Numbered from the stretch's first letter, positions 42,092 through 55,598 are shown. The stretch: 55,598 nt of DNA from Promethearchaeota archaeon (GCA_019057865.1 JAHLWP010000029.1:1-55598), one strand, 5' to 3'. The notes: generated by a model not told the origin, from the sequence alone. Numbers and translations are program-made.

Positions 42092-43090
42092 CTATCTAGT
42101 AATTACAGAAATATCTTTAAAATCTTCATTTTGAGATAAAGTCAATTTATTTCCATTGGATAAAAACATTAATGCTAAAAACATCCTTACTAAGGCAAAT
42201 TTCCTGCCAATATCACTTTCTTCTTCAGTTTTAATAATATCAGTTAAGTTATAAAAACTAGTTGGTTTATTGTCTAAATCAATTGTAGCTTTTATACGAT
42301 TGAGCCATGATTCGTGTAATTCTTGTATTGTTTGATCTTTTCCACTGATATGTTTTAAGAGTTCCCTTGGTAATTGTGCTTTAGATTTTATTTGTAGTCT
42401 TTGTTGCTTTAATTCTTCCTTTCTCATTTGTCTTCTTCTTATTTTTTCCTTATTTTGCATTACTTCTATGATTGCAGATCTCATTGCATCAAATAATTCA
42501 TCTTTCGTAGCTATTTGCATTTTAGGTTGTATAGGTTGTGGTAATGCTTTTGGAATGGATCGAGCATGTCTTTCTCTAAATTTTTTTAATTCTTCCATTT
42601 TCTGTATTTGTTCTTCTTCTCTGATAATGCTTGAAATTTTATAATGATGCAAACTTGCTGATGTTTTAAGTGCAATACCAGATATTTTATAATTAATTAA
42701 ATCCTCGTGAAGCATATTGTCAAAAAATTTATCAACTAAACTAGCCAAATCATAAAATGCAATTTCCGACTCTTTTGCCAACTCAGGATCTAATAAACTT
42801 GAATAGGGTGGCTTTTGCCAAAATTTCAATTCCATCTTTTCTTTTCTTAATAAAGCAAGATCCTCTTCTTCATCAAATCCAGCAACTAGTTCTTCTTCAA
42901 GTTCTTCTGGTTCTTGAGACCTATCGACAAATTCAGGATGAGAAACAATTTTTTCAAGTAATTCGATAATATCTTTCTTTTTAGACTTTGATGGTATTTT
43001 AATATTATTCTTACTAGCGAATTCTCTTAATTCCTTTACTGTCCATTGAGTAAAATTAAATTTATTATGTAAATCTTGCTTTTCTGATAT
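42092..43090 (-). CDS. scpA: Kleisin ScpA with N-terminal HeH (Rho-N/SAP-like) domain; probable ATA start at 43090 (first ATG at 42835)
   Basis: Lies between the smc remnant and scpB; C-terminal FLALMFL...L.Q.EDF. An 85-codon open in-frame extension begins AGGTGA-6nt-ATA. Confidence 0.8.
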   Translation of the reverse strand: MSEKQDLHNKFNFTQWTVKELREFASKNNIKIPSKSKKKDIIELLEKIVSHPEFVDRSQEPEELEEELVAGFDEEEDLALLRKEKMELKFWQKPPYSSLLDPELAKESEIAFYDLASLVDKFFDNMLHEDLINYKISGIALKTSASLHHYKISSIIREEEQIQKMEELKKFRERHARSIPKALPQPIQPKMQIATKDELFDAMRSAIIEVMQNKEKIRRRQMRKEELKQQRLQIKSKAQLPRELLKHISGKDQTIQELHESWLNRIKATIDLDNKPTSFYNLTDIIKTEEESDIGRKFALVRMFLALMFLSNGNKLTLSQNEDFKDISVITR

Positions 43091-43104: not shown

Positions 43105-43335
43105 TTAATTTTCTGTAATGGTTGGCTCAATATCTTCAAGTTCTAAAAGTCTTTTAGCTTCTTCTTCTAAATCGACACTAAAGATATCGGTGATCCCACT
43201 TTGTTGCATTGAAACTCCATAGATTCTATCTGCATTAACAATGTTTTCCTCACGATGGCTTATCACCATAAATTGAGCTTGAGATGCAAATTCTTTGATA
43301 ACCATACTAACTCTATGTACATTAGGACTACTCAT
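43105..43335 (-). pseudogene. smc: Isolated 3' end of condensin smc (post-D-loop part of the head domain)
   Basis: PNVHRVSMVIKEFASQAQFMVISHREENIVNADRIYGVSMQQSG is the canonical SMC C-terminus (QF.VISH H-loop, AD.IYGV) directly upstream of scpA-scpB. Similarity stops abruptly at ~43327. Confidence 0.85.
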
Positions 43336-43881
43336 ATTTAATCATTTAGCTATAATAACTATCTAAGATAAATTATTCTCTATTCCTTTATTTTATTTAG
43401 CTATAGTATGATGATAGTATTTTACCTTAAAAAATATTAATAGTTTATACTACTATTAATAATCATTTACAAGAAAAATAATTACTCTATTTAACGACTT
43501 AACATATTGAATAAAAATTAATTTCTAAATATTTAGTAATTTTAAATTGGATATTTTTCATATTCTCTTTCATCAATCACCAACTCCTTTATAAATAAAT
43601 GAAGGAAAAGTGGATGCAATTTTCAAAATAAAGAAGATTTTTCAAAAATAATGTAAAACGGGTTATAAAGACGATTAATGAAATTTTTTTTTGATCTTTC
43701 CAAAATAATACAAAACTTATTCTTTAAATTTATGCTAGATATGGTAAAAGAGAAAGCTCTCGAGTAATTTTCTAATAATCAAATCTTTATACGACTCTAG
43801 TAAATAAATTGCATCAACTAAAGCAATAAATATATTTGGATTATAAATTTATAATTATTTTCAATTTTGACTTGGTTGATG

Positions 43882-45879
43882 TTAATCTTTTTTATTGGGA
43901 TCTTTTACCTCATCCAATTCTATCAAATCTGCTCTTGTTTTCTTATTATTAGAAACCTTTGTACTAAGATCATAATCGTATTTTAACACTTCAGACAATG
44001 AAATTATATTAACTTCATCTGAATTTCTAAATTTTCTTGTAAGAGATTCTTCAAATGTAGTTATAATTAATTGGCTGATTAGTCCTTTATCACAAATGTC
44101 TGTTAAATAATCAATAAGGTTAATTCGGTTTTCAAAATTCAAGTGTTCTAATGGTTCATCAATGAATAAGAAAGGAAGGTCTGTATATTTTTTAGCAAGC
44201 ACAGTCTTTATAAGAACTAATAAGATCATTTTTTCCCCTGCGCTGGCATTTTTATAGGATATATTTTCTCCATTTTTTTCAAAGTACGGTAAGTAATCAT
44301 CAGTAAAGAATAATCTTCTTTTCTCTGAGGGAAAAATTTTTTGCCAAATGTTCTGGATCTCATCTTTAATTTCGTTTAGGCTAACATTTCTTTGTTTATC
44401 CAGAACTTTTTTAGTTACCACCTCGATTAATTCACAAATTAAACCCCCTTTTATATTTTTCTGGTATTCTTTCTCATATTCTAAAGCACCTCTTACTTTT
44501 TCAGCAGCTTTTATTTCACTTAGTTTTTTCTGAATTTCTCTTTCCCGACTTTCATACTTTTTTCTTTTATCTTTTGATTGCCTTAATTCAGATTCAATCT
44601 TTTCTTTTTTCTCTTCATACTCAGATTTCTGTTCAGTCATCTCTTTTATTTTACTCGGATCAAACCTCCCTAGAGATTCTATTAATTTTAGAGAATCTTC
44701 TAACATTTGCTCTGAATCTCTTAAATTTTTTTCTTTTTTTCTTAAATCTTTTAATTCCTCATCAAACTGAGAAGTTTCTCTATGTATATGCTCTAATTCC
44801 ACGTGAATGTCCTTATGGAGTTCTAAAAATTCTAATTTTTTTAACGGTTTTTTACATAGCGGGCAGTCCACTTCAGGAATGTCGTATAGGTTATGTTCTA
44901 GTTTATCCATTATTTCCTGTATTTTTTTTCTCTCTTCTGTTTTAACGTTATTTTCTGCAATTTTTTGTTGTATTTTACTTATATCATCTCGATATTTACG
45001 CATATTCTTATGTTTTTGTTCAATCAATTCATTAATATTCTCTACTCTCAATAAAAATCCTTGTAGATTAAATTCTCGAATGTTAATCTCTAGAAATAAT
45101 TCCTTTTTCTGGTTATATATATTTTCGAGTTTTTCTAATTCTTTATTAAAAGTATAATGGTCCCTGTAATCTTTCTCATATTTCTCAGCTAATTCTGATC
45201 TTTCCTTTTCTTTTTTGAGAATTTCATCATCTACGTTCTTAATATTTTGGAGAACCATGTTTTTTTCTCTTTGCAGATCGACTTTTTTTCCTAGATCCTC
45301 CGGTTCTTCTATCTTTTCTAACTTCTCAATATAAGTTTTAGTTTCTTTTTTCTTTTTCTCAAAATCATTTTTTAAGTTTGTCACATATCTATAAAATTCA
45401 TTAATTTTTCCAATTCCGACCAAATTCTCCAAATAATCAATTAGATCTCTCTTATCAACCTTTAAAAAGTTATATATTTCTCCTTCAGGAGAGTATAAAA
45501 CATTTTCTAAAAACGACCGATTTGCTTTAAAAATATCAAGTATAAATTCTAATATCTCCACCTCGTCCTCAATTATTTCCTCCGTATATCTTTTGATTAA
45601 TTTATGTGTCTGTTTTCCATTATAGCACCGAGTAATTTCATACTTATCCTCTAAATGCTCAAACTCTAAAATTACCTCTGTATCGTCAACACTCCCTATC
45701 CTTTTTAATTCTTCATCTTTTCTATTTCTAACTCTTCCAATTAAACCATAAATAATAGCCTCTAGAGTGGATGTTTTCCCAATACCATTAAATCCAATAA
45801 TGAAATTAACTCCCTTTTTAAATTCCAAATTTAATTCTTTATGGCATTTCCACTCTTTTATCGATAGTTTTTTAATCAT
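43882..45879 (-). CDS. Rad50/SbcC-like SMC-family ATPase with zinc hook and short coiled coils
   Basis: GFNGIGKTS Walker A, central CPLC, ASAGEK signature, FIDEP Walker B; no Mre11/SbcD adjacent. Confidence 0.85.
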   Translation of the reverse strand: MIKKLSIKEWKCHKELNLEFKKGVNFIIGFNGIGKTSTLEAIIYGLIGRVRNRKDEELKRIGSVDDTEVILEFEHLEDKYEITRCYNGKQTHKLIKRYTEEIIEDEVEILEFILDIFKANRSFLENVLYSPEGEIYNFLKVDKRDLIDYLENLVGIGKINEFYRYVTNLKNDFEKKKKETKTYIEKLEKIEEPEDLGKKVDLQREKNMVLQNIKNVDDEILKKEKERSELAEKYEKDYRDHYTFNKELEKLENIYNQKKELFLEINIREFNLQGFLLRVENINELIEQKHKNMRKYRDDISKIQQKIAENNVKTEERKKIQEIMDKLEHNLYDIPEVDCPLCKKPLKKLEFLELHKDIHVELEHIHRETSQFDEELKDLRKKEKNLRDSEQMLEDSLKLIESLGRFDPSKIKEMTEQKSEYEEKKEKIESELRQSKDKRKKYESREREIQKKLSEIKAAEKVRGALEYEKEYQKNIKGGLICELIEVVTKKVLDKQRNVSLNEIKDEIQNIWQKIFPSEKRRLFFTDDYLPYFEKNGENISYKNASAGEKMILLVLIKTVLAKKYTDLPFLFIDEPLEHLNFENRINLIDYLTDICDKGLISQLIITTFEESLTRKFRNSDEVNIISLSEVLKYDYDLSTKVSNNKKTRADLIELDEVKDPNKKD

Positions 45880-46633
45880 TTGAATTTCCCCTACTAATTA
45901 TATCATTAAAATTCTTGTCAAATTCTTCCATATCGATATTTTCTAAGATAAAATCTGAAAATAATCTAATAAAGGGATTTATTTCATAAAGGTTGAGTTT
46001 AAGCATTTGTTTTTTTTTATCTTTATGAAATCGCTTTGATTTAAAATTTTCAAAGATATCAGTTAGATATGAACTAAATTGTTCTGTTGGATTTGGTGCT
46101 TGAGATTTCGCAATTTTTTTTATTTGTTTTTCTATGAGTTCTATAAATCGGTAGCGAAAAGTAATTTCCTCATCTAATAATCTTGCTAAGGCTTCAGCTT
46201 CAAAATCTATTAAAATCTCTTGGAGGTCAGAATAAATTTTATTTTTATACAATTTAAAAGATGATAAAGAATTATCGTTCCAAATTATAATGATTCCATC
46301 TTGCCCTTTACTATTAGTAAATAAACTCTGATAATCTTTAAGCTCCTCCTCATTTATGGTTGGCTCAGAATTATCATTAAATATTAACAGATATTCCTTT
46401 TGATTTATCTCAATAATATATCTAAATGGTAAAATTTCTGTAGTCTTAGGTATTTTTTTTAAAAAATCGATTTCTCTTATGCTGATTTCTGGTCGACTGA
46501 ATAATAGCTCTTTAATTCTCTCAAAAAATTCTAGAAATAAGTTCATTCTGTCATAATCATCTGAGAAAGTACTTTCAATTTTCATGAGATCTTCGGGATA
46601 TTTATCTGGGTCCTTACTCAATTTAACATACAC
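45872..46633 (-). CDS. Hypothetical protein overlapping both the PIN and Rad50-like genes
   Basis: 253-aa ORF overlapping its neighbours by 8 and 11 nt; alpha/beta core. Confidence 0.65.
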   Translation of the reverse strand: MYVKLSKDPDKYPEDLMKIESTFSDDYDRMNLFLEFFERIKELLFSRPEISIREIDFLKKIPKTTEILPFRYIIEINQKEYLLIFNDNSEPTINEEELKDYQSLFTNSKGQDGIIIIWNDNSLSSFKLYKNKIYSDLQEILIDFEAEALARLLDEEITFRYRFIELIEKQIKKIAKSQAPNPTEQFSSYLTDIFENFKSKRFHKDKKKQMLKLNLYEINPFIRLFSDFILENIDMEEFDKNFNDIISRGNSND

Positions 46634-47444
46634 CTAAGCTAGTTTTTTCTGCTATCGCAGGTTCAAATACATCAAAAATCCAATCTTCATATTTTATTCT
46701 TTTTCTAATCTTAACTCTTTTTGGTTTGCCTTCAGTCACTTTCTTTAGAATAAATCTTCTAAATTCTCTTAGGTCATCATAATGACAGCATTTATATAGG
46801 TGCGTTAAGTGTGTTAAAAGCATAATCCCATTTACATTTCTGGTCTTGTAAACTTGACCTGCTAATGATATTCGTCCTTGGGCTTTGACATGAGCAACAA
46901 ATTTACGAAAACTGTCATCACCTGTTACAATTAAATATTTATAATTGTGGTGAAGGTTGATTTCTTCTAGCGCGCCTAGTAAAAAAGATAAATCTCGATA
47001 ATCAATTTCTGACAACCGTCTATTAGGATTCCTAGTAAAATTATCTGCTTTAATTTTCAGGTCTCTTAAAGCATCACGGTCCACAATATGGTTGTTTATT
47101 CCATTTAATAAAATATCTAAAAAATTTCGCTGATATGATGCGCCCAAATTGTTTAAAAACCTAACCTCATAGAGAAACGTTCCCTTATACTCCTTTTCAA
47201 TACCTAAATTTGAAGCAAAAAATCCTCCGAAAGAGCAATCTGCTTTTATACCCGCAAAAACATTCCTGAAATCATTCAGTATATCATGGTAATGCCTATT
47301 TCTAAATTCTTGTTCTGAGGGATAATTCTCCTGGCTATATTTAGCTTCAGAAAGATATTGCATATAATGGATTAGGGCATTTGTATCCATAATAGTGCTA
47401 CACCTATTTGGACAATCTCTATTAATTCGGGGACAAATAACCAT
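46623..47444 (-). CDS. PIN-domain ribonuclease-like protein
   Basis: IMDTNAL...E...IDYRDLSFL...LIVTGD acidic PIN pattern. Confidence 0.7.
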   Translation of the reverse strand: MVICPRINRDCPNRCSTIMDTNALIHYMQYLSEAKYSQENYPSEQEFRNRHYHDILNDFRNVFAGIKADCSFGGFFASNLGIEKEYKGTFLYEVRFLNNLGASYQRNFLDILLNGINNHIVDRDALRDLKIKADNFTRNPNRRLSEIDYRDLSFLLGALEEINLHHNYKYLIVTGDDSFRKFVAHVKAQGRISLAGQVYKTRNVNGIMLLTHLTHLYKCCHYDDLREFRRFILKKVTEGKPKRVKIRKRIKYEDWIFDVFEPAIAEKTSLGVC

Positions 47445-48150
47445 TTATTACTCACAACTATTATAAGTAAAAATCTATAAAAATTGAAAACATTGAAAAA
47501 CAAATTTTCCAATTAGAATTATATGATTTTTATCTTTAATATTACCAAAAAAATTACCCTTTTTATAATTATTCAAATTCATCAAAAAGAAAAAGAATTG
47601 GTCTATTTAATAGCTTAACATATTAAATAGAAATTAATTTCTTTGTATATAATAAGATTAATCCAAACAACAACATCATTAGGTTTAATTTCTATTACTT
47701 TTAAAAATGCTTCAATTGCTTAAGTAAAATTTTTTTCGTTAAAAAAATCTGATATCCTTTCCATACAATTGTGACTCAATATTTCTTTATTAGAAGACAT
47801 ACCATTTATCTATGACTTCCTCAAAAGTTTCATTTTCAGAAATACTTATTTCACTTTTTTTTACCTTATTTACTATAATACTATCAAGAATTCTTATTAT
47901 CTTAAATATCCTTAGAATACAGTTTGACTTTAACTTAATAATTTCAATAACAAACAGCATGAAAACGATAAAGAATAGGGATTAATTTTAATATTTACTG
48001 GTGCTGGATACATATCAGTAGGACTAGAATTGTCAACATCAATAGATACGCCTAAAAATAACTTTCCACAATCAAGACATTGGTTTTCAAATTTATTTAT
48101 TAGATCATTTAATTTTTCTTTTCTATTTTCCAAAAATTTTCACAATTAAT

Positions 48151-48312
48151 TTATTTTAAAACTTTTTTAACTATTAGATTATCTTCTTTTAATTGAATAC
48201 CAACATAGGTACCCTTTTTTATCTTTAATTCTTCGCACATCTCTTTCGGAATAACAAGTGCCAAACTATTACCTAATTTTACAACTTTAGATACGCTAAT
48301 ATTTTGAGACAT
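48151..48312 (-). CDS. AbrB/MazE/SpoVT swapped-hairpin DNA-binding protein (53 aa)
   Basis: Manual translation MSQNISVSKVVKLGNSLALVIPKEMCEELKIKKGTYVGIQLKEDNLIVKKVLK; below the ORF-track cutoff. Confidence 0.85.
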   Translation of the reverse strand: MSQNISVSKVVKLGNSLALVIPKEMCEELKIKKGTYVGIQLKEDNLIVKKVLK

Positions 48313-48333
48313 GAAAAATACCTTTAAAATTTA

Positions 48334-50190
48334 TTATATAATGTGTTCTATAGCTAATTCTTCCATAGAGCTTTCAGGGGCTAATTGAGTAATTACAACA
48401 TAATCGGATATATTTGCTATATATTCTTTCAGTTTTTCCATACGATCATCATCATAACTTGTAACAATTTCATCGATTACAAATAATGGAAAATCTGGAA
48501 GATATTCTTCTTTAGCAGCAATTAATAGAGTTATGCCAATTGTGTATCGTTCCGATGTTGAAAGTGCTTCTAGAGCCCAATCAGATAATATTTTTCCATC
48601 CTTTTCTCGAGTGATGTAAATCTTATAATCATCTTTAATTAAAACCTCCTTAAAATCAGTAAAGCCTAGTTCCTCGTATATTTCGTTTATTCTTTCATTA
48701 AATTTTTCAGCCGCTTTTTCTGTTATTTCGTCTTTCCTTCTTTTTAAATAAGAAAAACACTCGTCTAAAAATTCTATCTTATTTGTTAAAATTTCGGCTC
48801 TTTTTGTGCTATCTTCCAATTCTTTGATTCTCTTTTTTGTTTCTTTTATTTTAGATTCAAGAATTTGGATTCTGTCTTCAATTTTATCTCTCTCCTTTTT
48901 TAATTCAAGTATATCATCGCTAACATTTTCTAATAATTTGTAAATTTCCTTTTCTAGTGATTTTTGTTCTTCTATATTATCCTCTAATTCTTTTTGGATT
49001 TTGTCTAAATCTAATTCTCTTCTAGCTAAAGATTTTTCGCTTTTTGATAAATTTGTTCTTTGTATACTTAATTCTCTTTCTTGAATTTGTAAGTCATTAA
49101 TTTCATCTCGATAATCTTCTATTTCTCTATTTACTTTTTTTAATTGTTTTGAATAATCTCTTTTGGCTAATTCAAGACTTTTTTCGAAATCTTGTAATTC
49201 TTTTAGCGTTAATGGTTTTCCACAAGCATAACATTTATCTTCTTCATATTTTTTTCTTTTAATCCAATTATCGTTTATTGATTTTAACTCATCATCAATT
49301 TTTGATAATTCTTGTTGAATTTCTTTCCTCATTTTTATGCTTTCTTGTAATGAATCTTTTAAAACCTCAATTCTTTTTGTAATCTGAGGGTGTTCCTTTT
49401 CAATTTCAGAAATTATTTCTATTAATCTGTTGATTTCCATTTTTAAATTGTTTATTTGTTGATTTAAACTTTCAATTTTTCCCTTTATCTCTCTTATCGT
49501 TTTGTCTATTTTTTCTTTCTCATTTTTTGTCTCAAAATATTTTTCTCTTAAATTTTTATCTTTCAATAGTTGTTCTTCATCAATTTCCGGAAGTTTTTCT
49601 AACATTTTTAAATATTTACTCTTTTCTTTTAAATCATTTTCTAATGTAGTATTAATTTCTTCCAGTAAAATCAAATCTCTTTTATATATTTGGTATTGAC
49701 GATTGTAATTTCGTTGAAATTTTTCTAAAGATTTAGCAATTACATCATAAGATTTACTACCTGAAATATCTTCAATATATTCCCTTATTGATTTACCATA
49801 AAGAATTGAATTCATTAATTTATTTTCAGGAGTTGCGAAACATACTTGTGATAAATTGATTCCTTTTAATGGAAATGGATCTCCAGAAATAGCTAAGAGA
49901 TAATCTTTATTTTGAGGTCTTCTAAATGTACGCTTCCAAGAATCAGTATCAGAAATCAATTCTACTTCTAATTTTTCATCTGGAGCAGTTGCGAACATGT
50001 TCATATAATATCCCTTTCCTTTTAATTCTGAAGTAGGGATTAGAAACAACTCCAAACCTCTTGTAAAACTTGTTTTTCCTTTAGCATTAGGAGCTTTTAC
50101 AACATTTAAGCCCTTTTTTAAATTAAACGAATAAGTGCCTCTAAACACTCCAACATTCTCAAAATTTACTTTAATTTCATCACTACTCAT
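48334..50190 (-). CDS. Archaea-specific SMC-related ATPase (Sph/ClsN/Arcadin-4-like) with central CxxC
   Basis: APNAKGKTS Walker A variant, CYAC hook, LSTSER signature, FVIDE, DYVVITQL. ATG at 50190 overlaps the upstream stop. Confidence 0.8.
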   Translation of the reverse strand: MSSDEIKVNFENVGVFRGTYSFNLKKGLNVVKAPNAKGKTSFTRGLELFLIPTSELKGKGYYMNMFATAPDEKLEVELISDTDSWKRTFRRPQNKDYLLAISGDPFPLKGINLSQVCFATPENKLMNSILYGKSIREYIEDISGSKSYDVIAKSLEKFQRNYNRQYQIYKRDLILLEEINTTLENDLKEKSKYLKMLEKLPEIDEEQLLKDKNLREKYFETKNEKEKIDKTIREIKGKIESLNQQINNLKMEINRLIEIISEIEKEHPQITKRIEVLKDSLQESIKMRKEIQQELSKIDDELKSINDNWIKRKKYEEDKCYACGKPLTLKELQDFEKSLELAKRDYSKQLKKVNREIEDYRDEINDLQIQERELSIQRTNLSKSEKSLARRELDLDKIQKELEDNIEEQKSLEKEIYKLLENVSDDILELKKERDKIEDRIQILESKIKETKKRIKELEDSTKRAEILTNKIEFLDECFSYLKRRKDEITEKAAEKFNERINEIYEELGFTDFKEVLIKDDYKIYITREKDGKILSDWALEALSTSERYTIGITLLIAAKEEYLPDFPLFVIDEIVTSYDDDRMEKLKEYIANISDYVVITQLAPESSMEELAIEHII

Positions 50191-50380
50191 AATATTTCGC
50201 CACAATATCATTAATTAATTTTTCTAATTCATCTTCAGCTTTTTTTGATAGATTTTTTTTATATATTTGATGATTTTCTATCAATTGCCTTATTCCATTT
50301 TCAAATTCACTAAACATTCGATCTTTAGATTCTTTACCTTCTCGAGTTCTTTTTTTATTGTTGGTTTCTTTTCTAGACAT
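50183..50380 (-). CDS. Small helical ORF, possibly the frameshifted C-terminus of the upstream ORF
   Basis: Its stop overlaps the start of the SMC-like gene; overlaps the upstream ORF by 91 nt. Confidence 0.45.
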   Translation of the reverse strand: MSRKETNNKKRTREGKESKDRMFSEFENGIRQLIENHQIYKKNLSKKAEDELEKLINDIVAKYYE

Positions 50381-50640
50381 TTTACTACCTCTTTAACAAT
50401 ATTTGGTAAATCTCTTTCATATATAGGTTCTGTAATAAATAAATCTAATTTATTATTACATCTTTTTTTTAATGACCATAATAAGGTTAACAATTCTCCA
50501 TTTGCTTCCATCAGGAAAGTTCTCGAATCGAGTTTTTCAATAAAATAGTTTTGCAAATTTTTTCTGTTTCTTCCTTTTTTCCAGTTCCAAATAGTTTTTA
50601 ATACACTATTTTCTGTACAATGAACTAATATGAATGTAAT
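50290..50640 (-). CDS. Small hypothetical protein; probable ATT start at 50640
   Basis: AGGTGA-6nt-ATT, then an open frame (TFILVHCTENSVLKTIWNW...) running into the tracked ORF 50290..50556. Confidence 0.55.
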   Translation of the reverse strand: MTFILVHCTENSVLKTIWNWKKGRNRKNLQNYFIEKLDSRTFLMEANGELLTLLWSLKKRCNNKLDLFITEPIYERDLPNIVKEVVKCLEKKPTIKKELEKVKNLKIECLVNLKME

Positions 50641-50657
50641 AATTTTTCACCTTAAAA

Positions 50658-50682
50658 TACTCGCGACGCAGCGTCGCGAGTA
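50658..50682. promoter_or_regulatory. Perfect GC-rich inverted repeat (hairpin or operator/loading site)
   Basis: TACTCGCGACGC-A-GCGTCGCGAGTA with 12-bp arms, in very AT-rich intergenic DNA. Confidence 0.7.
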
Positions 50683-50692
50683 AAATTTTATA

Positions 50693-51412
50693 TTAAACAT
50701 TTGAATCTTTAAGAATTTTATCAATATATAATGATATTATTTTTTTCTCTAATGTTCGCATAGATTTAATCTTTTCAAACTCAATTTTTGTTCTAATATC
50801 TTCAAACTCCAAATTTAACTTTAAACATTTTTTTTTTGTGATTTCTATGAGCGTTTCTTCACTTGGAATAGGAAATTCAATATTGTAAAGTCGATCTTTA
50901 ATCGCTTTGTCTATTAAGTCGTATCTATTCGTCGTTAATATCACTGATATTTTTGTTGTATTTAATTCATCTAATCGATGGAAAAACACATTATTTTGAG
51001 CAAGGTGCCAAGATTCGCCCTTAATCCAATCTCTTTTTGGAAAAATTGATTCACAATCATCTATAAGGATAATAGAATGTCTGAATTGAGTTGCTTTTTG
51101 AAAGAGAATGGAGATTTGTTGTTCTGACTGTCCATATAACGAACGAGCAATATCCGCACCGTCAACAAAAATCAAATGACTATTAAGTTCTTTAGCTATA
51201 ATTTTTCCAATTAGAGTTTTCCCTAATCCAACATCACCATGAAAGAGAAATCCTGATATTCCATCTTCTATATGGTATTTCTGCTGAAATCTTATTATTT
51301 TTCTGACATCTTCTAATATATTTTGATATTCTTCGCCAATAACATCGTTTTTATTTTGTTTAATTTCATCTGATGAATAAATTTTAAAAGCTTCTTCAGT
51401 TCTTCTTGACAA
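50693..51412 (-). CDS. Stand-alone classic-clade AAA+ ATPase (Vps4/Cdc48/Pch2-like module)
   Basis: GDVGLGKT, pore loop SLYGQSE, Walker B IILIDDCES, SRH TTNRYDLIDKAIKDR. Confidence 0.88.
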   Translation of the reverse strand: MSRRTEEAFKIYSSDEIKQNKNDVIGEEYQNILEDVRKIIRFQQKYHIEDGISGFLFHGDVGLGKTLIGKIIAKELNSHLIFVDGADIARSLYGQSEQQISILFQKATQFRHSIILIDDCESIFPKRDWIKGESWHLAQNNVFFHRLDELNTTKISVILTTNRYDLIDKAIKDRLYNIEFPIPSEETLIEITKKKCLKLNLEFEDIRTKIEFEKIKSMRTLEKKIISLYIDKILKDSNV

Positions 51413-51428
51413 TGTATTTCAATCCCTT

Positions 51429-52250
51429 CTACAATTCTCGTTCTTCTTCTAATTTTAATTCTTCTGCTAAATTAACCCATTGTTTCATAGCATATATCGA
51501 GGCTGTGTTAAAAATTATCTTTTTCTCCCCTAAGTGGTGTATTAATTTTATATCTTTTGGTTTTTTTTGATCTCTTTCTATTACATTAGTAAAATGTCTA
51601 TATTCTAACTCGCTGTCCTCAAAAAGTTTCTTAAAATCCTCTAATTTCATTTCTCCCTTAAAATTTTCAGCTACCATTAAAGCAGAAGCAATTGGGTATA
51701 TCAATCTAAATCCTTTTTGTAAAATACCCGATGCTATCATTCTACTAATTGAACTACCATAAATATCTGCTTCATAACCACGCTTTATAGTATCTTCAAT
51801 AAATTTTTCCCAAATAGATGTTAATTTAAGAAAAGAGTTTTCAATGTCTTTTCCAATAATTTCAATGTATCCATGTTCCTGAAGCAAAAACAGATTTTTA
51901 ACGACATTTCTCAATCCACTGCAAGCATTTCTAATAAAGAAAAATGGAATTTCTCCACTTTTCTTTCTTGTCAAGCGTTCTTCCATTTTTTCTAATGTCC
52001 CAGTTTTTTCATAGTATTCTTTATCATCTTTTAATCTTCGTTCAAGATCCTCTGCTTCAATTTTCCCATCAACAATTAATGCAAACATAACGGATAAAAT
52101 TGATTCAATCCCTTCAAGATGTGAGAATGTTGATATATCAAAAGATTGAACTCCTCTTAAAAGACGGTCGTTGCTACTGTCTAATCCGTTATAAATGAGA
52201 TCATCAAACGATTTTATTAAATAATTATACGCTATTCCTTCAATTTCCAT
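51429..52250 (-). CDS. Putative tandem winged-helix protein B (paralog of 52251..53072)
   Basis: LFLLQEHGYIEI...LKLTSIW wHTH pattern; colinear similarity to its neighbour. Confidence 0.7.
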   Translation of the reverse strand: MEIEGIAYNYLIKSFDDLIYNGLDSSNDRLLRGVQSFDISTFSHLEGIESILSVMFALIVDGKIEAEDLERRLKDDKEYYEKTGTLEKMEERLTRKKSGEIPFFFIRNACSGLRNVVKNLFLLQEHGYIEIIGKDIENSFLKLTSIWEKFIEDTIKRGYEADIYGSSISRMIASGILQKGFRLIYPIASALMVAENFKGEMKLEDFKKLFEDSELEYRHFTNVIERDQKKPKDIKLIHHLGEKKIIFNTASIYAMKQWVNLAEELKLEEEREL

Positions 52251-53072
52251 TTACGGACTCCCTCTTGATCTTCTTAGCCGATTTAAATAATCTTGAGCCG
52301 CTGTACGCCATACTTGTAAAGCTCTAACCGAATGTGGGTTAAAAATAACTTTCTCGTTATTTTTATACCCAATTAATCTAATTATTTCGCTCTTTTTTTC
52401 ATCTGTCCTGATTGAAATCGGAAAATAATAGTAAGGTAACCCCATATCAAGATATATATTGAGAAACCCCTCTAAAGAGATTTCATTATCATTGCTTTCT
52501 GCTCGGTTTATTGCTATAATAATAGGTTTAATGAACCTTATCCCTCTTTCTCCCACACCTAAAGCAAGCATTTTTCCTAAGGAGCTAACAAATACCCTTA
52601 ATTCTAATTCATCATTTATTATCATTTCTAATAAAGGATCCCAAATATCTGTTAGAGATATTAAACTACTATCTCTTATTGGTTGATCTGTTGGCTCAAT
52701 GCTAACAAGACCAAATGATGCTAATTTACTTAATTTTTGACGCCTTTTTTTAAGATCACCCAATAAATATCTTAATATTGAATAGGGAAATTTACCTCCG
52801 CTTTCTAAATCAAACTTTTCCCTGATTATATCATATATACCCAATTCATTGTATGTTTCTTCAACTTCGGACTCTGGAAAAAATCTAAAGGGATTTGAAG
52901 CTATCGTTAAATCAACCAATACTGTAACTATAATTTCGACGCCTCTTAAACCCATCCACGGAGATAAATCAAAGGATTGAATGCCTCTCAAAATTTCGAA
53001 ATCTCCACTCCGCATAGCGTCACAAATAACATCACATATCGTTTTTTCATGTGCACTAAACATATCTTCCAT
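52251..53072 (-). CDS. Putative tandem winged-helix protein A (paralog of 51429..52250)
   Basis: LSKLASFGLVSI...ISLTDIW; shares LRG(I/V)QSFD(L/I)S and K(V/I)IFN..S with its neighbour. Confidence 0.7.
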   Translation of the reverse strand: MEDMFSAHEKTICDVICDAMRSGDFEILRGIQSFDLSPWMGLRGVEIIVTVLVDLTIASNPFRFFPESEVEETYNELGIYDIIREKFDLESGGKFPYSILRYLLGDLKKRRQKLSKLASFGLVSIEPTDQPIRDSSLISLTDIWDPLLEMIINDELELRVFVSSLGKMLALGVGERGIRFIKPIIIAINRAESNDNEISLEGFLNIYLDMGLPYYYFPISIRTDEKKSEIIRLIGYKNNEKVIFNPHSVRALQVWRTAAQDYLNRLRRSRGSP

Positions 53073-53075
53073 TTT

Positions 53076-53543
53076 CTAATCGTCCTCCATTCTATTTTGT
53101 ATTTCTTTTTCTAAAAACTTTTGAGTGCCGAATTTTATTGCCTCCTCTTCGATTAATTTTTTCTTATTATTATGTGTTAGAATTACAGCGTTTAATGCAA
53201 TTTCTTCACTTATCCAAGTAATTACTTTATTAATATAATCAACAGTATTCTTAGAAACTCTTTTAGCATCGCTCTTTTCCATTATATCTTTAATATTGGA
53301 GACTGGAAACATTTTAGATTCTAAATTATCAGGATATTTTCCTAAAAAATTATATATTCCTACTTTTATTGAATCTTTTTGGATTGTTTTATTTCCTTTA
53401 AGACGAGTTAATTTTACCGCTATTGAAGTGATTTCTACCGATATTTTTGAAACAATATCATTAAACAAATCAAATGATACTTCAGAAATATCCTCGGCAC
53501 CATTATTTTTAAGAATTTGTGATAATACTTTTTTTGATAACAT
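53076..53543 (-). CDS. Divergent histone-fold doublet
   Basis: Two HMf-like folds: ILKNNGAEDISE...AVKL...GNKTIQ and FPVSNIKDIMEKSDAKRVS...A...KKKLIEEEAI. Confidence 0.85.
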   Translation of the reverse strand: MLSKKVLSQILKNNGAEDISEVSFDLFNDIVSKISVEITSIAVKLTRLKGNKTIQKDSIKVGIYNFLGKYPDNLESKMFPVSNIKDIMEKSDAKRVSKNTVDYINKVITWISEEIALNAVILTHNNKKKLIEEEAIKFGTQKFLEKEIQNRMEDD

Positions 53544-53684: not shown

Positions 53685-53942
53685 TTATTTTGTCATCTTA
53701 ATATGTTTATTTGCCAAATGTTTCTTTAAACATCCCTTTTCTTTGGCTTTATACTCGCAATAAGGGCACTCGTGCCATTTCACTCCAATATCATGTTTAT
53801 AAGCTAAATGCCTATTGAGATTTTGCTTTGCTTTTGTTTTATAATCACAATGGGAACACTCATGCCATTTTACTCTAATATCATGTTTATATATCTGCCC
53901 AGAGAGAGGTTCAAAAGGTCGTATTTGGGTGAAAACCCGCAA
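53685..53942 (-). CDS. Tandem C2H2 zinc-finger protein (start uncertain, possibly truncated)
   Basis: Two 30-aa repeats HDI.VKWHEC..C.YK.K....L..HLA.KH. Confidence 0.75.
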   Translation of the reverse strand: MRVFTQIRPFEPLSGQIYKHDIRVKWHECSHCDYKTKAKQNLNRHLAYKHDIGVKWHECPYCEYKAKEKGCLKKHLANKHIKMTK

Positions 53943-55282: not shown

Positions 55283-55598
55283 ATAAGTGAAATAGGCGAA
55301 AAAGGCGAATTTAGTGATAAAGCTGAACAGGATGAATTAAATACTGAGAGCGATGAGGAGTTTGATGAAGGATTTCATGAAATGGAAGAATTAGCAGATG
55401 AGACTGATGAGGGGTTTAATAGCGGATTTCATAAGATGGAAGAATTAACAGATGAGACTGATGAGGGGTTTAATAGTGGATTTCATAAGATGGAAGAATT
55501 AACAGATGAGACTGATGAGGATTTTAATAGTGGATTTCATAAGATGGAAGAATTAACAGATGAGACTGATGAGGATTTTAATAGTGGATTTCATGAAA
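55283..55598 (+). CDS. Acidic tandem-repeat protein (partial; probable ATA start, first ATG at 55382)
   Basis: AGGAGG upstream; open frame SEIGEKGEFSDKAEQDEL...(GFHKMEELTDETDE[G/D]FNS)n to the window end. Confidence 0.65.
   Translation, partial: MSEIGEKGEFSDKAEQDELNTESDEEFDEGFHEMEELADETDEGFNSGFHKMEELTDETDEGFNSGFHKMEELTDETDEDFNSGFHKMEELTDETDEDFNSGFHE
55370..55598. repeat. 54-bp tandem repeat, at least 4.2 copies, runs off the window
   Basis: ggatttcataagatggaagaattaacagatgagactgatgaggggtttaatagt units at 55370, 55424, 55478, 55532 and 55586. Confidence 0.93.

Follow-up and report, generated by a model that had tools for sequence, protein, structure and literature searches.

A mobile archaeal operon around an ASRP-family zinc-hook ATPase, with a putative role in handling foreign or mobile DNA

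INTRODUCTION

The ASRP family comprises archaeal SMC-related ATPases, among them Sulfolobus ClsN (coalescin) and the Halobacterium and Haloferax proteins Sph1-4. Its members bear the Walker motifs A and B at the protein ends, a coiled coil and a CxxC zinc hook; the zinc-hook ATPases ClsN and Sph associate with DNA or chromosomes, and the genes beside ASRPs showed no consensus (Yoshinaga, Nakayama and Inagaki 2022, PMC9389158). In haloarchaea, Sph3 and RdfA form a conserved pair with a role in rod/disk cell shape (Schiller et al. 2024, PMC10869688). A survey of prokaryotic histones (Schwab et al.) describes histone operons with RdgC-like or IHF-like genes and none with SMC-like or AAA+ genes. 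Here we describe an operon in a 55,598-nt stretch of DNA from a Promethearchaeota archaeon (Asgard; GCA_019057865.1 JAHLWP010000029.1:1-55598; 28% GC; hereafter the window) in which an ASRP gene stands with genes for a histone doublet, two tandem winged-helix (WH) proteins, a Cdc48-like AAA+ ATPase, two small proteins that we call S116 and S65, and an AbrB-type protein. The ASRP family itself is known; for the partner set of histone, WH, Cdc48-like AAA+, S116 and S65 no description was found in the literature searched. The core of the set recurs as a unit in other archaeal DNA, and the operon probably handles foreign or mobile DNA.

The operon occupies the minus strand from 48151 to 53543, with eight co-oriented genes and one palindrome making nine features. 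They are given here in operon order, followed by the border of the island in which the operon lies.

53076..53543, minus strand: histone-fold doublet, 155 aa, first gene of the operon (PF00808, NCBIfam archaeal histone, PDB 1F1E)
52251..53072, minus strand: WH-A, 273 aa, tandem winged-helix protein without a Pfam family (AlphaFold 2 model)
51429..52250, minus strand: WH-B, 273 aa, paralog of WH-A (30% identity)
50693..51412, minus strand: classic-clade AAA+ ATPase, 239 aa, without N-domain (PF00004)
50658..50682, no strand: perfect palindrome (12+1+12) lying between the AAA+ stop codon and the start of S116 (read from the sequence)
50290..50640, minus strand: S116, 116 aa, ferredoxin-like, ATT start (kept across related loci; AlphaFold 2 model)
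50183..50380, minus strand: S65 microprotein, 65 aa from 50380 or 44 aa from the Met at 50317 (conserved in 22 loci)
48334..50190, minus strand: ASRP-family zinc-hook SMC-like ATPase, 618 aa (NF045487)
48151..48312, minus strand: AbrB/MazE-type DNA-binding protein, 53 aa, last gene (PF04014)
43105..43335, minus strand: duplicated smc 3′ end, island border, outside the module (identity to the complete smc on contig C80)

The genes are tightly packed. Intergenic gaps are 3 nt (histone/WH-A), 0 nt (WH-A/WH-B), 16 nt (WH-B/AAA+) and 21 nt (ASRP/AbrB), while the 52-nt spacer between AAA+ and S116 contains the palindrome. S65 overlaps S116, and its stop codon overlaps the ASRP ATG (ATGAGTAG); an alternative ATG for ASRP lies at 50211. 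A previous reading of this stretch from sequence alone (the sequence-only reading) had reported this co-oriented run as a candidate chromatin-associated system; its genes are all present on the minus strand with the spacing and coordinates it gave. That observation is confirmed, and the interpretation placed on it is partly supported, as detailed below.

RESULTS

Recurrence of the operon

A metagenome scan by the distinctive AAA+ motifs returned 68 loci, 50 of which carry at least one partner gene. Partners were counted in these 50 loci and seven earlier ones, a locus being used only where its contig reaches far enough; since the loci were chosen for having at least one partner, the counts measure co-occurrence among partners and not how often the AAA+ gene travels alone. 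Given enough DNA, ASRP is present in 34/34 loci, S116 in 44/45, a WH gene in 40/41 and AbrB in 22/34.

The core order WH-AAA-S116-S65-ASRP recurs across independent loci. Each long contig with a close WH-A homolog has the same order in a different neighbourhood (L011, L013, L015), and the order is also kept in the independent contexts of L016, L019 and L032-L035; in L016, L032 and L033 the WH and AAA genes overlap. Distant loci retain one WH gene, AAA+, S116, S65 and ASRP, and three of the loci (L090, L091, L100) have the same set in the rearranged order AAA-S116-ASRP-WH. The parts of the operon on either side of the palindrome stay together down to ~29% ASRP identity. An order shared by dozens of independent loci goes far beyond what chance would give. 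The core thus travels together over deep divergence, usually with a histone-fold gene in front and AbrB behind, and the earlier suggestion of a self-contained module, which turned on synteny in other archaea, is borne out.

The front of the operon is more variable. Of the 40 loci with upstream DNA, 26 have a histone-fold open reading frame (ORF), recognised by a broader histone-fold profile, that immediately precedes the WH gene or genes or stands between them, and Pfam confirms the fold in L019, L034, L055 and L062. In L032 and L033, from a histone-lacking clade, a zinc-ribbon protein is found instead. Most relatives have one WH gene and either a singlet histone-fold protein or a zinc-ribbon protein. 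The histone doublet and the WH duplication are, judging by these gene sets, lineage-specific versions of a common plan. The proposed set of histone doublet, two WH proteins, AAA+ and SMC-like ATPase therefore holds for its core order, and not for the doublet and the duplication as core elements.

The ASRP ATPase and AbrB

As the sequence-only reading had supposed, the large ATPase is SMC-related. It matches NCBIfam NF045487 (ASRP) over the full length of the model (310.5 bits, E 2.4e-92; residues 12-606 on model positions 1-593 of 593), and its score exceeds the equivalog cut-off, curated at 300 bits. Walker A (APNAKGKTS) lies at the N-terminus and Walker B (LFVIDE) at the C-terminus, with a coiled coil and a CYAC hook between. 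Among 31 homologs there is no change in G38 and K39 of Walker A, C320 and C323 of the CxxC hook, E547 (LSTSE signature) or D573 of Walker B, and almost none in E574. By family assignment, the protein is a member of the ASRP (coalescin/Sph) family. PADLOC models give generic or partial matches, to LmuB (5.5e-17, residues 323-605 only), PbeC and JetC (best 1.5e-7), and there are weak Rad50 matches. The last gene encodes an AbrB/MazE-type protein (PF04014, E 8.5e-11).

The AAA+ ATPase

The AAA+ protein matches PF00004 (E 8.9e-23), and its nearest solved relatives are VAT/CDC48 (E ~1e-35); only ~50 residues precede the ATPase core. Across nine homologs the motifs GxGKT, SLYGQSE (the pore loop), LIDDxES and TTNR are invariant. 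Walker B reads LIDD in all nine, placing Asp at the position of the catalytic Glu of the canonical hhhhDE. On these motifs the protein belongs to the classic clade (Cdc48/VAT-like), to which it had already been assigned, with one Walker B deviation. PADLOC matches to IetA (4e-14) and TRIP13 (3e-12) are generic.

Eighteen of the 68 AAA-motif loci lack a partner gene, and 12 of these form a separate high-GC AAA+ clade; we treat the partnerless loci as a stand-alone paralog. The stand-alone clade (L074-L096, GC 0.46-0.64) is 43-48% identical and keeps the DD of the Walker B region. In one of its loci, L075, the AAA+ gene adjoins genes for TusA, a sulfur transporter, DUF169 and a thioredoxin-like protein, with no ASRP or WH partner beside it.

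The winged-helix proteins

WH-A and WH-B are paralogs (30% identity, E 3e-36). The AlphaFold 2 model of WH-A (predicted local distance difference test score, pLDDT, 85) has two WH domains (approximately residues 40-150 and 160-245), an N-terminal helical pair and a long C-terminal helix. Neither protein matches a Pfam, NCBIfam or PADLOC family, and 34 members of the WH family gave zero Pfam matches. Fold matches to WH-A are generic winged helices with Z of at most 8, in which MCM8, ORC, MarR, ArsR and HxlR tie with kite-type proteins: JetB scores 7.6, an Smc5/6 chain 7.2 and MAGE-G1/NSE1 6.8, against 7-8 for MCM8, ORC and MarR, and Scc1-C is likewise tied with generic winged helices. When the WH profile was compared with PDB sequences the best match was DnaD at E 0.04. 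The tandem WH architecture proposed for the two 273-aa proteins is therefore confirmed, while their proposed kinship with kite subunits is unproven, the matches being generic and neither sequence nor profile providing a link.

Close WH-A homologs number 18 proteins (54-90% identity), and a WH profile search found ~50 clusters (at 50% identity) of ~270-aa relatives; a narrow WH alignment scan of the genome collection added just one further locus. Relatives with a single WH gene score slightly nearer to WH-B than to WH-A. No fused WH forms were seen among proteins of 505-2000 aa, which is weak evidence. Homology of the WH family to RdfA was considered and rejected, as hhalign against three RdfA or RdfA-position proteins gave a probability <1%.

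S116 and S65

Where the sequence-only reading had a single small protein, there is indeed coding sequence, but it holds two conserved overlapping genes, S116 and S65. S116 is found in nearly all related loci, yet gene callers often miss it. Its AlphaFold 2 model (pLDDT 94) has a ferredoxin-like beta-alpha-beta-beta-alpha-beta fold with a C-terminal helix; fold matches are generic: the UreE C-domain reaches Z 8, and Cas2 and Csy4 have Foldseek E values of 0.01-0.08 (best E 0.007). A PAS-like assignment from a protein atlas (score 0.92, few shared features) was rejected because the model is ferredoxin-like. At the position of the relatives' ATG, S116 of the window has ATT (50638-50640, a possible non-canonical start), which a Shine-Dalgarno-like AAGGTGA precedes by 6 nt. 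S65 is read in a different frame, overlaps the end of S116 and is conserved in 22 loci; its conserved part of ~45 residues resembles two helices.

The histone doublet

Two stretches of the histone match Pfam PF00808 (CBFD_NFYB_HMF), and two stretches likewise match the NCBIfam archaeal histone NF043032 (E 2.3e-20, 72.8 bits, cut-off 50). The best PDB match is the Methanopyrus HMk doublet 1F1E, aligned over residues 5-136 (132 residues). The genome has seven histone genes: six singlets elsewhere and the module copy, which is the sole doublet and the weakest match of the seven. We therefore regard the module histone, by sequence comparison, as a dedicated, divergent copy, in agreement with the earlier proposal of a dedicated histone variant.

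The palindrome

The palindrome at 50658-50682 reads TACTCGCGACGC-T-GCGTCGCGAGTA. It is GC-rich within an AT-rich genome, in which it occurs once; an A-run and a T-run border it, and a TATA-like stretch lies immediately upstream. Of 39 distinct homologous spacers, 28 have a perfect palindrome whose arms reach 8 nt or more, versus 23 of 3900 shuffles; for arms of at least 10 nt the counts are 21/39 and 1/3900. The arms vary even among close relatives, yet stay perfectly complementary, and the unpaired centre is 0-2 nt in 28/28. In most of these loci the palindrome ends 12-29 nt upstream of the S116 start. That it is a simple RNA hairpin and nothing more is doubtful, since a hairpin needs no 0-2-nt centre. 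From its form and position, the palindrome may be an operator, an attenuator or a loading site.

Island and mobility

The WH family is found in six of 400 genomes of the phylum, counting the source genome; the 53 other genomes of the genus that were searched all lack it. What precedes scpA-scpB in the window is only the last ~73-76 codons of smc (43105-43335); the complete smc is on contig C80, at the other end of the island. The fragment and the end of the complete gene are 84% identical in amino acids and 76% in nucleotides. After the complete smc, C80 has a convergent gene for a 1237-aa repeat protein, and the 5′ repeats of that gene agree with the window's open end, so that the two contigs join. 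The DNA between the complete smc and its diverged 3′-end duplicate is thus an insertion of at least 16 kb, and the placing of the module in an island is upheld.

Nothing separates smc from scpA in 11 of 14 congeners. The other three have the same kind of smc fragment, with islands of 6.5, 13.4 and 17.3 kb that share the repeat-protein gene and a short border segment and differ in cargo. The smc 3′ end (43105-43335 of the window, with C80 33814-42029) is, on this genomic comparison, an insertion hot spot in the genus. No integrase was recognised in the island, and Pfam found none in the large repeat protein.

Other loci have other neighbours. The module is accompanied by an integrase and a methylase in L085, a D5-like primase and HNH in L091, Prim-Pol in L100 and MCM in L055; by DUF262/GmrSD-like, SIR2-like and Schlafen/AlbA_2 proteins in L032, L033 and L042, respectively. 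ASRP relatives occur on many haloarchaeal and Methanosarcinales plasmids (75 plasmid records). The 2.9 million viral contigs gave one partial AAA/S116 match only; it lies at the end of its contig, and its neighbours are uninformative. The cassette moves between genomes and is here cargo of an island in the smc 3′ end.

In the window and in L015, a Rad50/LmuB-like module follows the ASRP operon. The window's copy (43882-47444, minus strand) has three genes. Their products are a 273-aa protein with a faint PIN match, an unknown 253-aa protein and a Rad50/LmuB-like ATPase of 665 aa whose hook reads CPLC and which matches PADLOC LmuB over its full length (1.4e-31). In L015 the ASRP module is followed by a Metallophos protein and then a related pair (248-aa and 629-aa proteins).

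Comparison with described systems

Among published ASRPs, whose family the 618-aa ATPase shares, the present subfamily differs in having fixed partners (WH, AAA+, S116, S65, usually a histone-fold protein and AbrB) and in being mobile. The Sph3-RdfA pair resembles it in joining an ASRP to a conserved small neighbour gene. However, no RdfA is found among the module proteins (S116, S65, WH-A and WH-B have no NCBIfam match), and no AAA+ or histone is reported with the pair. RdfA is annotated beside an ASRP gene on Halobacterium and Methanohalobium plasmids. On Methanosarcinales plasmids (Methanohalobium, Methanomethylovorans) a ~160-aa protein follows RdfA or the protein in the same position (L037 8669-9154, L039 8518-9015) and by eye resembles a tandem winged helix; if it is one, it would make a second, independent association of ASRP with WH proteins.

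The SMC-kleisin-kite complexes (Smc-ScpAB, MukBEF, Wadjet JetABC, Smc5/6-Nse1-Nse3-Nse4) likewise combine an SMC-superfamily ATPase with tandem WH proteins, and the two WH paralogs of the module have a parallel in Nse1/Nse3 of Smc5/6. The module differs in that its ATPase has a zinc hook, not a hinge, in its added AAA+ and histone, and in having no JetD-type nuclease. Pfam, NCBIfam and PADLOC gave no ScpA, MukF or JetA match, and hence no kleisin, for the module proteins. Of the Wadjet components, JetA, JetB and JetD are without a match and the JetC matches are partial, at the level of the coiled coil; of the Lamassu components, LmuA and LmuC are without a match in the module and LmuB is partial.

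Rad50-Mre11/SbcCD and Lamassu also have a short zinc-hook coiled-coil ATPase. The module lacks the Mre11/SbcD phosphoesterase, and in the island it is the neighbouring 665-aa protein, not the ASRP, that is truly Rad50/LmuB-like. Mre11 has Rad50-binding helices, which the two-helix look of S65 may recall. Finally, TRIP13/Pch2-HORMA (CBASS) and IetA are multi-protein modules with a classic-clade AAA+; only the ATPase core is shared, since the module has no HORMA or protease partner and its Walker B has DD. PADLOC names no system here, so the view that the set matches no already named system stands, within the literature searched.

DISCUSSION

Proposed function

We lean towards reading the operon as a mobile accessory cassette encoding one DNA-handling machine around the ASRP, its job being most likely non-destructive control of DNA in genetic conflict. 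Co-inheritance and translational coupling suggest a single multi-subunit machine; the spread on islands and mobile elements points to genetic conflict or element maintenance. As the set has no recognisable nuclease or effector, handling would be non-destructive (bridging, compaction, silencing or segregation) rather than cutting of the Wadjet or Lamassu type. A housekeeping chromatin role is less likely.

In such a machine an ASRP dimer would bridge or entrap DNA, and the tandem WH protein(s) and the histone-fold protein would serve as DNA-binding or targeting subunits, the WH role being like that of kite or Mre11 accessory proteins with no homology to them implied. S116 and S65, the latter with the look of two helices, are coupled to the ATPase in translation and may be head-associated subunits. 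A hexamer of the Cdc48-like AAA+, which is without an N-domain, could remodel or dismantle the assembly, and AbrB and/or the WH proteins may regulate the operon through the conserved palindrome. Incoming DNA would thereby be compacted, silenced or excluded, or the element itself maintained. The division of labour put forward by the sequence-only reading, in which the histone would mark the DNA, WH and SMC-like proteins would bind it and the AAA+ enzyme would reset the complex, is likewise a supposition.

Several points weigh against this account. The studied ASRPs have no conflict function, ClsN acting in chromosome organisation and Sph3, with RdfA, in cell shape (PMC10869688). Some loci lie in housekeeping settings: L073 between tRNA synthetases, L041 with TGT, and L016 with PolD-small and Cdc6. 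The ASRP has no H-loop histidine and the AAA+ has DD in Walker B, so that ATP turnover may be slow or purely regulatory, and the ATT in place of ATG in this genome may mean that S116 is poorly expressed. The palindrome divides the operon into halves that could be expressed or act separately. That the subunits would make one complex is suggested by gene arrangement; a complex prediction of the ASRP head (residues 1-215 and 425-618, two chains) with S116 and WH-B scored 0.00, which counts neither way. With no nuclease, protease, NADase or membrane domain found in any core gene by Pfam, PADLOC or NCBIfam, a role in defence leans on context alone.

Alternative explanations

Strict defence against viruses or plasmids is the foremost alternative, although we consider it rather unlikely. 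As in Wadjet or Lamassu, detection of foreign DNA by the SMC-like ATPase would set off an effector, namely the AAA+ unfoldase, an unrecognised nuclease in S116 or WH, or the neighbouring PIN/Rad50-like module. The patchy distribution would fit, as would the island site beside the LmuB-like 665-aa gene, a neighbourhood repeated in L015; the DUF262/GmrSD-like, SIR2-like and Schlafen-like neighbours elsewhere and the partial LmuB, PbeC and JetC matches of the ASRP point the same way. Against these stand the lack of an effector domain in any core gene and of any PADLOC system call, and the several loci on elements with their own replication genes fit element maintenance equally well. The weak Cas2 and Csy4 matches of the ferredoxin-like S116, which also speak for defence, are generic (Foldseek E of at least 0.007, Z of at most 8).

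Maintenance of the mobile element itself, by partition, compaction or silencing, seems to us unlikely, and a shade more so than defence. The palindrome would then be a cis site, centromere-like or for loading, bound by WH, histone or AbrB, while the ASRP holds or segregates copies. A perfectly dyad-symmetric site inside the operon in 28/39 loci, unique in this genome, is what such a role would want, and the adjoining integrase, D5-like primase, Prim-Pol and MCM genes, the many haloarchaeal and Methanosarcinales plasmids with ASRP relatives and the missing effector gene all agree with it. But neither an integrase nor a replication gene is recognisable in the island, an operator or attenuator would equally lie 12-29 nt before a start codon, some loci are plain chromosomal insertions amid housekeeping genes, and 2.9 million viral contigs gave a single partial match.

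A bolder possibility, which we rate as improbable, is that a histone-based SMC-like system chromatinises and silences episomal or invading DNA without cutting, with the palindrome as self-site or loading site. The histone-fold and WH proteins would target the DNA, its entrapment and compaction would fall to the zinc-hook ASRP, and the resetting of the complex to the AAA+ unfoldase. Eukaryotic Smc5/6 restricts extrachromosomal DNA, and if the silencing proposal were true the operon would be a prokaryotic functional counterpart of that restriction in the archaeal lineage closest to eukaryotes.

Very improbable is that two independent units, a histone/WH/AAA+ remodelling unit and S116/S65/ASRP/AbrB, merely travel together with the palindrome as terminator or promoter and form no joint complex: the sole sizeable gap does hold a conserved palindrome with A-run, T-run and TATA-like stretch, the AAA+ subfamily also occurs alone beside sulfur-metabolism genes (as a separate clade) and other ASRPs pair with RdfA without an AAA+, but both halves are present wherever there is enough DNA (40/41, 44/45, 34/34), despite rearranged order in L090, L091 and L100 and down to the lowest ASRP identity seen, ~29%.

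Implications

ASRPs are the least understood branch of the SMC superfamily, and one of their subfamilies now has fixed candidate subunits, by which an archaeal SMC-like complex becomes directly testable. It is unusual for a histone-fold protein to be regularly encoded in one operon with an SMC-like ATPase and an AAA+ unfoldase, as it is for the whole set to travel on mobile DNA of Asgard and other archaea; three chromatin machineries are linked in one small cassette. The operon is relevant to the policing or maintenance of foreign DNA by archaea, and it may also bear on where eukaryotic SMC-accessory and histone-handling systems came from.

Other features of the window

Just upstream of the operon (53685-53942, minus strand) lies a gene whose 85-aa product has two zinc fingers of the C2H2 type (Pfam zf-H2C2_5, 7e-11), followed by ORFs of 66 aa and 165 aa without any family. 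The repeat protein (>1237 aa) begins at 55382-55597 and continues into C80 41995-38282; tandem MEELTDETDE(D/G)FNSGFH repeats at its start broke the assembly. It stands beside smc in other islands too, and Pfam recognises in it only a treble-clef zinc finger near the C-terminus. The scpA frame (42835-43090) is open for 334 codons in all congeners, while its first ATG gives 247 aa, a possible case of a non-canonical start. A ~75-nt repeat (~76-80% identical) is found at 43450-43520 and 47570-47640, downstream of each island module, and could be a shared terminator or a cassette boundary.

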